Assembly (NCBI RefSeq): GCF_030013595.1
Contig: NZ_CP122768.1
Source: Escherichia coli
GTDB lineage: Bacteria; Pseudomonadota; Gammaproteobacteria; Enterobacterales; Enterobacteriaceae
Reading direction: 5' to 3' (one strand)
Length of the DNA stretch: 64,000 nucleotides
The notes below the pieces were generated by a model. That model was not told the DNA's origin. It ran no database searches and worked only from the letters and a program-made list of their open reading frames with translations. Both the position numbers and the translations under genes were made by a program. Of this stretch, positions 6,017-9,765 are shown piece after piece; the first letter of the stretch is position 1; each line of letters begins with the position of its first letter.

Positions 6017-6685
6017 TCACATTAGCGAGGGGATCAGGCGGCGGTAGTCATTCAGTGACGGATGGCGTTGATACTGTTTCTCGGCAATCCCGGAGTCAGG
6101 ATTAGTCACGCCGAGGCAGTAACGAATACCAAATTGCGCGGCAGCATCGAGAATCGCTTCGCTGTCATCAATAAACAGCGTTCTTTCAGCTTTCAGACCC
6201 GTAGCTTCGGCCACCGCATGCCATAACCGCTGATCCTCTTTCGGATAACCAAATGTGTGGGTGGAAAGTAATAAATCAAGGTGTGCGTCCAGACCGGTAT
6301 GCTCAAGTTTTACCGCCAGGTTGTGCGGATGCGCATTGGTGAGCAAAATTCGCTGCTTACCGCTGGCTTTCAGTGCCTCAAGAAACGGAATGGTATCTTC
6401 ACGCAGTACGGCACGCGGTCCCATCTCGGTGGTCATCGCACAGATATCCAGACCCAGTTGCTCACTCCAGTAATCAAGACAGTACCAGTTTAGCGTATGC
6501 TGTACGTCGTGATATTGCTGGCGCATATATTCCATCGCTTCCTGTGGCGTAACCCCGTTTTTCGCGCCCCATGTTTCAGGCACCAGCTTTTGCCAGAAAT
6601 AATTATCGAAGGCGAGGTCGAGCAACGTGCCGTCCATATCCAGCAGAACGGTATCTACGTCCTGCCAGGCAATGTTGATATGCAT
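6017..6685 (-). CDS. yrfG: HAD-superfamily nucleotidase YrfG, 222 aa
   Basis: HAD motif I DMDGTLLD near the N-terminus; ATG at 6683..6685 is preceded by a GGAG Shine-Dalgarno; ORF track extends 15 codons further upstream. Confidence 0.85.
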   Translation of the reverse strand: MHINIAWQDVDTVLLDMDGTLLDLAFDNYFWQKLVPETWGAKNGVTPQEAMEYMRQQYHDVQHTLNWYCLDYWSEQLGLDICAMTTEMGPRAVLREDTIPFLEALKASGKQRILLTNAHPHNLAVKLEHTGLDAHLDLLLSTHTFGYPKEDQRLWHAVAEATGLKAERTLFIDDSEAILDAAAQFGIRYCLGVTNPDSGIAEKQYQRHPSLNDYRRLIPSLM

Positions 6686-6749: not shown

Positions 6750-8885
6750 TTATTCGATAAGGCTTTCTGAAGGGGTGATCAGTTGTGGGTTCAGGCAGCT
6801 TTCATAATAGGCCTGAATCTTCATCATGCGAGTACGATGACGCTGGTAACGACGCCAGGCCTGTACGCCATTATAAATGGCGCTACCCAGCATCGTCAGT
6901 AGGAGCAGAGTGGTGCTGAGATAGCGCCACAGGCCGGAACGATCCGGGATCGGATGAAGGCCAATATGCTGCGTACCATTGGCGTCAGTGAAGATTTTTG
7001 TGACGATACCTTCGGCGTTAAACGGCGTATGCATCAGCATTTGTGCCAGTTTCTGGAAAGCGTTCCACTGTTCTTGCGGCGGATAGTCGTAAAGTGATGC
7101 CGAAGGCCAGGGCTGATCAACAAAATCGCTGCCTTCGTCGCTGACAATCAGGAACCCGCCGGGGGCCGGACTGTTTAGTGATTGTGCCGCTCGCGCCGTT
7201 TCATGCGTGATAAACGGCGCGGTAGAGGTGGCCACCAGGTTATCCAGCGATTCCGCACTCACCGGGCGTAATAACACATTCACGCCATCGAGTTTCCCGG
7301 CGTTGGCGCGTTTTACCAGCGCGTCCCAGTCTTTACTGTTACCGAGATTGACCAGCGCATTTTTCAGTCGCACACAGTCATCTTTGGCAGAACACAGATC
7401 CGCTGTCTTCAGTACTATGTCGCCAAAATCATCAAGCAATACCATGCCGGATTTTTGAATTGCTGAACGTAATGAGGCGCTGACGCGAGATTCATCTTCC
7501 GGTTTAGGGTGCAGCTGGCGATTAACTGCTTCGGTCAATGCCGTCGCTTTGTTGACCAATTCAGATTCTGGTAATGGCAATGAGCGGGCGTCATTCCAGA
7601 TGATCTGCGAGCAGTCAAACGGTAAAAAAGGTGAGTTGGTTTTCGCGCTCCAGGTACCGGAAGTGCGAATATTACACATTCCCGTACCGCTAATACGCAA
7701 TGTATCGCCAACCCGCACGCCAGCGTCAGCCAGTTGTTTCACGCTGGTGGCTTCAATGGTCTGCGCGCCTTTCATCCACGAGAGGGTGAATTTCAGCGGC
7801 ATATCCAGCGGGATCCAGAATAACAGCATAAACAGCACCAGCAGCGAACCCGCAGCGATAATCGTACTGCGCAGCCAGTGCTGTAACGGAAAGTTTTTTA
7901 CTTCATCATGGAGCGAAAGATATCGCCCCTGACGCACTACGTGGCGGTCGAGATAGATATCGATATCGGTTTGTTGACCAAGATCCTGAGCAATGTATGG
8001 CTGCCAGTGTGCGGGATAGACCAGGTCGATAATACCGAGTGAAATATTGTTGATCTGTTCCTGATCGTTTTCGCCAAACAATCCCCAACGACGGGGTGTA
8101 CCGCGCAGACAATGAATTTCCCGCAGGGAGGATTTTGCCGGGGGCGCGAATAGCCCCCACAGACCTGCGCCCAGCAGCAGTAACGCGCCGCCTGCCAGCC
8201 ACGGAACAAATACATCCGGGGTAATCAGGCAGAAAAAGAACATCAGGAAAGAGGCGACGATCAGCAACGCTTCACGCAGCCCGCGCGGACGACTCAGCGC
8301 ATATTCTTCGTGCGTTTCTTTGCGAATATTGAGTAGCTCGATTTGCTCACTCTCTTCCCCGCGAATCGACGCCTGTGTTGACGGAACAGGTTGCAAGGCA
8401 TAGCCGCGCGTTTCCTGCATGTACTCCTGCAGCGTATGACCGTTGAGTGAAATAACCAGCGGCAGCGAATTGGTATGAATCAGTTCAACGGTATTCTCAT
8501 CGTTGATGTACTGCTCCCAGAAAGGGGGCAGGTGGACTTCTACCGAATCGAGGTAGTAACGCCATTTATTCGGATCGTCGGTAGAGATGCCGTAACGCGT
8601 GATAGCGTGTGTCAGCATCATGACGTTGTTGCTTTCGGCATTCAGCGCCAGAGAGATCGGTGCCGCGCTGGCTCCCGTTGGGCCAGGCACCTGTAATACC
8701 TGCGTCAGGCTCTCAAGATAATTTTCAACGGCGCTATGTTCTTCAGGTGTGAGTTTACGCGTTTGCGCATCCGCGAAGGCGTTGGTCCAGGGCAGCTGAC
8801 GCCGTCTGGATCGCACTTTTATCAGCCATCCCGCAAGTAGTGAGCAGGCCAGCAAAGCAGCTAAAAAAATCACAATGGTGCTCAT
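6750..8885 (-). CDS. igaA: Rcs-phosphorelay negative regulator IgaA (YrfF), 711 aa
   Basis: 711-aa inner-membrane protein with several hydrophobic segments, in the expected position between yrfG and nudE. Confidence 0.9.
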   Translation of the reverse strand: MSTIVIFLAALLACSLLAGWLIKVRSRRRQLPWTNAFADAQTRKLTPEEHSAVENYLESLTQVLQVPGPTGASAAPISLALNAESNNVMMLTHAITRYGISTDDPNKWRYYLDSVEVHLPPFWEQYINDENTVELIHTNSLPLVISLNGHTLQEYMQETRGYALQPVPSTQASIRGEESEQIELLNIRKETHEEYALSRPRGLREALLIVASFLMFFFCLITPDVFVPWLAGGALLLLGAGLWGLFAPPAKSSLREIHCLRGTPRRWGLFGENDQEQINNISLGIIDLVYPAHWQPYIAQDLGQQTDIDIYLDRHVVRQGRYLSLHDEVKNFPLQHWLRSTIIAAGSLLVLFMLLFWIPLDMPLKFTLSWMKGAQTIEATSVKQLADAGVRVGDTLRISGTGMCNIRTSGTWSAKTNSPFLPFDCSQIIWNDARSLPLPESELVNKATALTEAVNRQLHPKPEDESRVSASLRSAIQKSGMVLLDDFGDIVLKTADLCSAKDDCVRLKNALVNLGNSKDWDALVKRANAGKLDGVNVLLRPVSAESLDNLVATSTAPFITHETARAAQSLNSPAPGGFLIVSDEGSDFVDQPWPSASLYDYPPQEQWNAFQKLAQMLMHTPFNAEGIVTKIFTDANGTQHIGLHPIPDRSGLWRYLSTTLLLLTMLGSAIYNGVQAWRRYQRHRTRMMKIQAYYESCLNPQLITPSESLIE

Positions 8886-9204
8886 GCTTTCCCCATCTTA
8901 CTTAGTCTGTCAGGCGTGGTCAGTCGCACCGGACACAATACATGATTCTGCGGTTGGCTATCGGCAAGCGTGGAGTTTAACTTGAGCATCATTAAGCACA
9001 TCACAGTAACCGCTGATCATAGCAAACCCTCTGAAGGCGGAATATCAGCAAATTCCTGGAGTTATTTCAACCTATTGACTTTTAATTTGATTTGAGGACG
9101 ATTATTTATTAAGTTACATAAATGTAAATAACATGCAATTCACATTGCCGAAAGCGTGTCCGATATCGCACAATAACCGCTGATTTCACAGCATAGATCC
9201 CACG

Positions 9205-9765
9205 ATGAGCAAATCATTACAAAAACCCACCATTCTGAATGTTGAAACTGTAGCCCGTTCCCGACTGTTTACCGTCGAAAGCGTGGATCTGGAGTTCAGC
9301 AATGGCGTGCGGCGTGTTTATGAACGAATGCGTCCAACCAACCGGGAAGCAGTGATGATTGTGCCGATTGTGGACGATCACCTGATCCTGATCCGCGAAT
9401 ACGCAGTGGGAACTGAATCCTACGAATTAGGTTTTTCGAAAGGATTAATTGATCCGGGTGAAAGCGTCTTCGAAGCCGCGAACCGCGAGCTAAAAGAAGA
9501 GGTGGGATTTGGTGCGAACGATCTGACTTTTTTGAAGAAGCTCAGCATGGCACCGTCTTACTTTTCCAGCAAAATGAATATCGTGGTAGCGCAAGATCTC
9601 TACCCGGAATCGCTGGAAGGCGATGAGCCAGAGCCGCTACCACAGGTGCGCTGGCCGCTGGCGCATATGATGGATTTGCTGGAAGACCCTGACTTCAACG
9701 AAGCGCGTAATGTCAGCGCGCTGTTCCTCGTGCGCGAATGGTTGAAAGGGCAGGGGCGAGTGTAA
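9205..9765 (+). CDS. nudE: ADP-compounds hydrolase NudE (Nudix)
   Basis: 186 aa with Nudix box GLIDPGESVFEAANRELKEEVG. Confidence 0.92.
   Translation: MSKSLQKPTILNVETVARSRLFTVESVDLEFSNGVRRVYERMRPTNREAVMIVPIVDDHLILIREYAVGTESYELGFSKGLIDPGESVFEAANRELKEEVGFGANDLTFLKKLSMAPSYFSSKMNIVVAQDLYPESLEGDEPEPLPQVRWPLAHMMDLLEDPDFNEARNVSALFLVREWLKGQGRV

Follow-up and report, generated by a model that had tools for sequence, protein, structure and literature searches.

The 16-nt direct repeat of the igaA-nudE intergenic spacer in Escherichia coli and the conserved elements that surround it

Two copies of a 16-nt sequence found between the divergent genes igaA and nudE of Escherichia coli are most probably a lineage-specific coincidence of two unrelated core promoter or leader segments rather than paired binding sites of a single regulator. 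The intergenic spacer is 319 nt long and is at positions 8886–9204 of the window (the whole 64,000-nucleotide stretch of DNA analyzed). The igaA (yrfF) gene is at positions 6750–8885 on the minus strand and nudE is at positions 9205–9765 on the plus strand; the K-12 NC_000913.3 coordinate is 3535354 minus the window coordinate. The spacer is an ordinary divergent promoter region with one published sigma-28 promoter and two putative sigma-70 promoters for igaA, and one putative promoter for nudE. IgaA is the essential inhibitor (brake) of the Rcs envelope-stress phosphorelay, and a regulator acting at the igaA promoter would be worth knowing. Slightly lowered igaA expression renders E. coli mucoid and phage-resistant, and the cells survive macrophages better.

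The locus is stable both within and beyond the species. Positions 8800–9300 display at least 99% identity in 5425 of 5426 complete E. coli genomes, with igaA and nudE annotated. A NudE scan with one genome per species gave a footprint sample of 80 Enterobacteriaceae loci, and all 80 have kept the igaA-nudE arrangement and a spacer of approximately 320 nt. Alignments were made with 35 named species and later with all 79 distinct spacers. Blocks were taken as conserved when they showed at least 85% conservation among 30 non-Escherichia species.

The repeat and its phylogenetic distribution

Copy 1, CACAGTAACCGCTGAT, is at positions 9002–9017 and copy 2, CACAATAACCGCTGAT, is at positions 9169–9184, both on the plus strand. 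The two are identical at 15 of 16 positions and the distance between them is 167 bp, start to start. The initial annotation had described a 16-nt core with one mismatch, and both direct reading and a repeat finder agree with it; the longer strings it quoted at 8996–9023 and 9168–9196 are also correct. No further full copy of the 16-mer is present in the 64-kb window. Matches of 13/16 are found at two places in the window, one inside yrfG and the other inside another gene. A partial third copy, TGCCATAACCGCTGAT, is within the yrfG coding sequence at positions 6219–6234 (plus strand) and has 12 nt (ATAACCGCTGAT) exactly in common with copy 2. A dispersed motif was considered and rejected, as the 11-mer triple within 3 kb is not significant; 8 of 40 windows simulated with a Markov model also contain clustered triples of an 11-mer.

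The identity of the two copies is far above that expected from a random model. When the 319-nt spacer was simulated 5000 times with a first-order Markov model, a direct pair of at least 15/16 never appeared, and windows of 64 kb simulated by the same type of model have a mean of 0.27 such pairs. The real window has three more isolated 15/16 pairs whose members are at most 320 nt apart, all of them within genes (34455/34569, 38832/39042 and 51960/52026). These served as a real-sequence background, and they indicate that real sequence is heavier-tailed than the Markov model. Among 77 other species, the spacer's best internal 16-mer pair reaches 11–13/16, at unrelated positions. The repeat pair is an upper-tail event seen only in E. 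coli and its closest relative.

Most of the strong direct repeats in the window are of another type. A 900 amino acid reading frame at positions 60160–62862 directly follows a tufA-like gene, and its tandem repeats, with units of about 303–309 nt (around 60300–61250), account for most of them. The repeats encode NAWWV...NPWR modules, which precede a chitinase-like C-terminal region, and the reading frame is probably chiA.

Similarity between the copies falls off in steps with distance from E. coli. Copy-to-copy identity is 15/16 in E. coli, 14/16 in Escherichia sp. MOD1, 12/16 in E. albertii and 10–11/16 in three other Escherichia lineages. It is 8–10/16 in Citrobacter and Salmonella, 6–8/16 in Enterobacter and 2–5/16 in Klebsiella, Raoultella, Kluyvera, Yokenella and Trabulsiella. 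Within E. coli, the sequence over 60 nt is identical in 5273 of 5426 records at copy 1 and in 5101 at copy 2, though the whole spacer is as fixed as the repeat copies. The question of conservation outside the single strain, which the initial annotation had raised, therefore has a divided answer: the pair is fixed across E. coli, but in other genera the similarity is at background. The repeat pair is thus species-wide yet species-specific, and its similarity does not appear to be maintained by selection across relatives.

The pattern of variation within each copy is of the same kind. The core that makes the copies alike, AACCGCTGAT, is variable in both of them, and the CACAAT of copy 2 is present in 79 of 79 sequences. 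Copy 1 has a mean conservation of about 0.5 per base in the 30 non-Escherichia species, and most relatives display CCCAGTGA... at its position rather than CACAGTAA. In addition, the genes are divergent and the copies are on one strand, thus the copies are opposite in orientation relative to transcription. With the similarity lost across genera, the core AACCGCTGAT variable and the copies opposite relative to the genes, the proposal that the repeats are paired binding sites for one regulator is not supported.

Published and putative promoter elements for nudE and igaA

The putative sigma-70 promoter of nudE is at positions 9145–9174 (plus strand) and was recognized by its conservation. It consists of a -35 element TTGCCG (9145–9150), a variable 18-nt spacer and a -10 element CACAAT (9169–9174). 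The TTGC at 9145–9148 is found in 79 of 79 sequences, as is CACAAT, and the invariance of the latter shows that this putative nudE -10 hexamer is under constraint. Positions 9175–9185 are variable in the 79 sequences except for G9182. The simplest reading is that the nudE -10 element forms the first six bases of copy 2, and that the remainder of the copy would be a freely drifting discriminator and the start region (about 9181–9183). A plus-strand -35 sequence TTGACT at 9075–9080 was also considered, but it has no conserved -10 element downstream.

On the minus strand, which is the igaA-sense strand, copy 1 reads ATCAGCGGTTACTGTG, and it would comprise the final 2 nt of an invariant extended -10 element, the discriminator, the predicted transcription start and the first bases of the leader. 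The putative extended -10 element of igaA, TGcTATGAT, is at positions 9016–9024 (minus strand), and both conservation and CRISPR interference (CRISPRi) data point to it. T9024, G9023, T9021, A9020 and T9016 (igaA strand) are invariant in 79 of 79 sequences and the bases between them vary freely. Sigma-70 promoters with an extended -10 element (TGn-TATAAT) likewise have TG at -15/-14, T at -12, A at -11 and T at -7 conserved and the rest free, and the pattern TGnTAnnnT at 9024..9016 has this form. The n positions are free and the pattern is present in 79 of 79 sequences, as expected of an extended -10 element and not of a contiguous operator. There is no conserved -35 element at 17 nt. Since the hexamer ends at 9016, the igaA start is predicted at about 9007–9010, within copy 1; the repeat clips only the last two bases of the hexamer. 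A GATC (Dam) site at 9015–9018, which E. coli and E. albertii have and Citrobacter lacks, overlaps both the end of copy 1 and the hexamer of the extended -10 element.

A putative distal sigma-70 promoter of igaA is at positions 9041–9070 (minus strand) and matches the consensus at 9 of 12 positions in a scan. It has a -35 element TTGAAA (9070..9065), an 18-nt spacer and a -10 element GATATT (9046..9041), and it contains the invariant block ATATCAGCAAATTC (9042–9055). TTGAAA is found in 73–79 of the 79 sequences and TGCTGATAT is nearly invariant. The -7 position (9041), however, is T in only 45 of 79, so that the promoter assignment is weaker outside of Escherichia. Copy 1 is downstream of this promoter, from which a start near 9034 (about 3526320 in NC_000913.3) is predicted.

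Two similar conserved motifs, TTTGCTGATAT (9042–9052) and TTTGCTATGAT (9016–9026), are 26 bp apart on the minus strand. The pair is the best internal repeat of the spacer in several Citrobacter species (13/16). These motifs may represent promoter elements in tandem, or else a single factor may bind at both.

The FliA (sigma-28) promoter of yrfF/igaA, CAAGTTAAACTCCACGCTTGCCGATAGC, is at positions 8957–8984 (minus strand) and has been published. Its -10 element is GCCGATAG at 8965..8958. A FliA ChIP-seq peak with the CAAGTTAAACTCCACGCTTGCCGATAGC motif was found upstream of yrfF, with a FAT score of 9 (Fitzgerald, Bonocora and Wade 2014, PMC4183435), and the same promoter is also predicted by PromoterAtlas. 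The motif at 8984..8957 is of the TAAAGTTT-N11-GCCGATAA type and, according to the published peak, FliA binds it in vivo; a start at about 8950 would be expected from it. The published RNA-seq data do not show that yrfF expression depends on FliA, as yrfF RNA is 62 in the wild type and 53 in the fliA deletion, which is not a significant difference (PMC4183435). The promoter is conserved in Escherichia, Citrobacter, Salmonella and Enterobacter. It shares the spacer with the repeat and is 18 bp downstream of copy 1 (igaA sense), and it overlaps neither of the copies nor the palindrome described below.

A second sigma-28 promoter, directed toward nudE, was rejected. The sequence TTGCCGAAAGC mirrors TTGCCGATAGC of the igaA promoter, but the TAAA-to-GCCGA distance is 22 nt and not 19. 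At the igaA-nudE locus the FliA ChIP-seq table shows no motif other than that of yrfF (PMC4183435). The mirrored sequences form an inverted repeat, GCTATCGGCAA/TTGCCGAAAGC, at positions 8957–8967 and 9145–9155, which is complementary at 10 of 11 positions. One arm is the sigma-28 -10 element of igaA and the other overlaps the putative nudE -35 element; any TAAA-type -35 sequence is 3 bp farther away than a second FliA promoter would require. A second dyad, GCAAT-N4-ATTGC at 9134–9149, also overlaps the putative nudE -35 element. In Citrobacter and Salmonella it is a perfect 7-bp dyad, CGGCAAT-TCAC-ATTGCCG, and in Enterobacter and relatives its middle is TTGACA.

Published genetic data connect this part of the spacer with igaA expression. 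CRISPRi guides across positions 8935–9077 phenocopy an igaA knock-down (Mutalik et al. 2020, S4 Table). With phage T3 the guides at 9058–9077 and 9030–9049 show log2 fold-changes of 8.4 and 10.0, and strong phenotypes are likewise seen with guides at 9015–9034, 8951–8970, 8942–8961 and 8935–8954 (Mutalik et al. 2020). The guide at 9015–9034, which is over the extended -10 element, is among the strongest igaA knock-down guides. The guides at 9058–9077 and 9030–9049, which are over the putative distal -35 and -10 elements, are igaA-sense in sequence and are thus directed at the template strand. As dCas9 on that strand interferes more effectively with initiation than with elongation, their strong phenotypes fit a block of initiation. 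They support a functional promoter over about 9030–9077 in K-12 and are compatible with tandem promoters. The initial annotation had proposed that the spacer carries the promoters of the two genes, and this is upheld by the published FliA promoter, by the CRISPRi guides across 8935–9077 and by the promoter-like invariant elements for both genes.

Insertion sequences also disturb this region. Rcs becomes activated when an insertion is present at -20, -43 or -47 of igaA (Miskinyte et al. 2013, PMC3861542; PMC11541549). They are downstream of all of the igaA promoter elements described above and likewise show that the spacer drives igaA; none has been reported within the repeats or the palindrome. 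E. coli AR_0019 (NZ_CP024889.1) has a natural IS1 at 9056/9057, with CAAATTCC duplicated. The IS1 is between the distal TTGAAA and GATATT, inside the invariant block ATATCAGCAAATTC, and it seems to be the equivalent in nature of the laboratory insertions by which igaA expression is lowered.

Alternative explanations for the repeat

Several properties of the repeat are not those expected of a coincidence. The 15/16 identity exceeds both the random models and the best pair in every other species, the spacing of 167 bp is approximately 16 helical turns, and both copies are almost invariant among the 5426 E. coli genomes. The stepwise rise in similarity toward E. coli would also be expected from directional selection. 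These properties, together with the overlap of both copies with putative core promoters, would fit a recent operator pair specific to E. coli, where one regulator acts on the -10/+1 region of both promoters and possibly loops the 167 bp between them. Such a pair is nevertheless improbable. It is not conserved in E. albertii, in other Escherichia lineages or in any other genus, the 16-mer is reported by the repeat finder to have no internal symmetry or sub-repeat and no second locus in the 64 kb carries it in full, and a regulator of the locus with such a motif was not found in the literature searched.

An explanation at the RNA level is more doubtful still. As the repeats are direct on one strand and the genes are divergent, the sense RNAs are complementary at 15 of 16 positions, and AUCAGCGGUUACUGUG of the igaA leader could pair with CACAAUAACCGCUGAU of the nudE transcript; copy 1 is within the leader that the putative distal igaA promoter would give. 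But the putative nudE -10 element opens copy 2, which would place most of that copy upstream of the nudE start. Moreover, the complementarity is not conserved, no Rfam match is found, and the igaA leader displays no covariation. The least probable explanation, to which we give almost no weight, is an old insertion between igaA and nudE, with the copies as its ends or as what is left of a target-site duplication. Insertion sequences are known to enter the spacer and the direct repeats flank a segment of 151 bp, but the alignment contradicts this explanation: the length of the spacer and its interior blocks are conserved across the family. The conserved interior implies that the segment between the copies is ancestral and that the repeat is younger than what it encloses. 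A chance likeness of a nudE -10/start region and an igaA extended -10/leader segment is thus the favored reading of the repeat.

The RNA searches gave little else. Rfam matches in the spacer are only chance-level hits, none of them near a gathering score, and the igaA leader alignment shows 0 compensatory pairs and 8 invariant pairs. In the igaA leader (8876–8935, minus strand) base pairing is possible between an invariant CCU and the GGG of the ribosome-binding site, and likewise between GGUGC and GCACC at codons 2–3. All of the pairing bases are invariant, and there is therefore no covariation for or against a structure. A 4-codon upstream reading frame, ATGGGGAAAGCATGA, which overlaps the igaA start, was rejected; its ATG and stop codon are lost in Yokenella and Trabulsiella, so that the ribosome-binding site better explains the conservation.

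The palindrome and other conserved blocks

The palindrome TTACATAAATGTAA (TTACA-TAAA-TGTAA, without strand) is at positions 9114–9127. It had been noted before, one base too far to the left (9113–9126). TTACA-N4-TGTAA is found once in the window, where 0.07 occurrences are expected. The palindrome is inside a conserved element, GTTRCA-N4-(A)TGTAAATAA, at positions 9113–9131. The right arm and its flank, AATGTAAATAA (9121–9131), reach the conservation threshold of at least 85% in the 30 non-Escherichia species. In the left arm GTT[A/G]CA is conserved, and the gap of 4 nt is constant in length and variable in sequence. Conserved half-sites at a fixed spacing, with a spacer of variable sequence, are what is expected of a dyad operator, and GTT[A/G]CA with TGTAAA shows this arrangement, although the A/G polymorphism of the left arm breaks the perfect symmetry. 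The reading of the palindrome as a binding site is thus supported in part: the half-sites are conserved across the family, the left one as GTTRCA, and make a credible candidate for protein binding. Judged by this conservation, the palindrome is most likely the binding site of a dimeric or tandem DNA-binding protein. The center of the GTTRCA-N4-ATGTAAATAA dyad would be upstream of both the predicted nudE start and the predicted distal igaA start, by about 61 and 87 bp, respectively.

It is also conceivable, though unlikely, that the palindrome is not an operator. It would then combine the -35 element of a third igaA promoter farther upstream (TTTACA on the minus strand) with A+T-rich DNA upstream of the nudE promoter. 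A consensus scan finds TTTACA-16-AATAAT at 9128..9101 with 10 of 12 matches, and the -10 sequence AATAAT is present in all Escherichia. Outside of that genus the -10 sequence does not persist: one with at least 4/6 matches, including A2 and T6, and a spacer of 15–19 is found in only 19 of 77 species. A third igaA promoter cannot then explain the invariance across the family, as AATGTAAATAA is invariant in nearly all species despite loss of the -10 sequence. The conserved left arm GTTRCA is not explained by a -35 hexamer, and the top CRISPRi hits include no guide upstream of 9077, where the library may have few guides. A protein-binding dyad is therefore the better reading of the palindrome.

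Other conserved blocks are distributed along the spacer. These are the igaA ribosome-binding and start region (8883–8903), the block ATATCAGCAAATTC already described (9042–9055), TTTCAA (9065–9070), TTGAC (9075–9079), ATTGCCGAAA (9144–9153) and TCGCACAAT (9166–9174). TTTCAA and TTGAC are within a larger block, TTTCAAcctaTTGACtttt (9064–9085), which has the TTGAAA -35 sequence when read on the minus strand and TTGAC when read on the plus strand.

Known motifs do not readily account for these blocks. The ArcA box has the consensus GTTAATTAAATGTTA. The sequence GTTACATAAATGTAA matches 12 of 15 positions of this consensus in the same 11-bp register and is a lead only; the first repeat is GTTGC in half of the species, and neither the conserved C nor the second repeat, GTAAA, agrees with the ArcA box. 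Comparison of the palindrome with consensus motifs of ArcA, OmpR/RstA, CpxR, CytR, TyrR and CRP gave none that is convincing, the ArcA box being the best match. In the same manner the fit to motifs of CRP, FNR, CytR, CpxR, OmpR/RstA, PhoP and ArcA, and to those of sigma-32, sigma-E, sigma-54, the RcsAB box and the IHF core, is too poor. The literature searched yielded no binding data and no regulator for the repeat or the palindrome at this locus.

The spacer resembles divergent promoter regions with shared operators in its back-to-back genes, its 319-bp length and its conserved short blocks, which include a dyad. It differs from them in that the 16-mer pair is not conserved and the dyad is without an assigned factor. 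The flagged repeat is probably not the regulatory handle on igaA, and the footprint map shows which blocks of the spacer are constrained. Tentatively, GTTRCA-N4-ATGTAAATAA, ATATCAGCAAATTC and TTTCAA-N4-TTGAC may be operators for at least one regulator so far not linked to this locus. If this is true, such regulators would set the level of IgaA jointly with nudE, and the 16-mer repeat of E. coli would be irrelevant to it.
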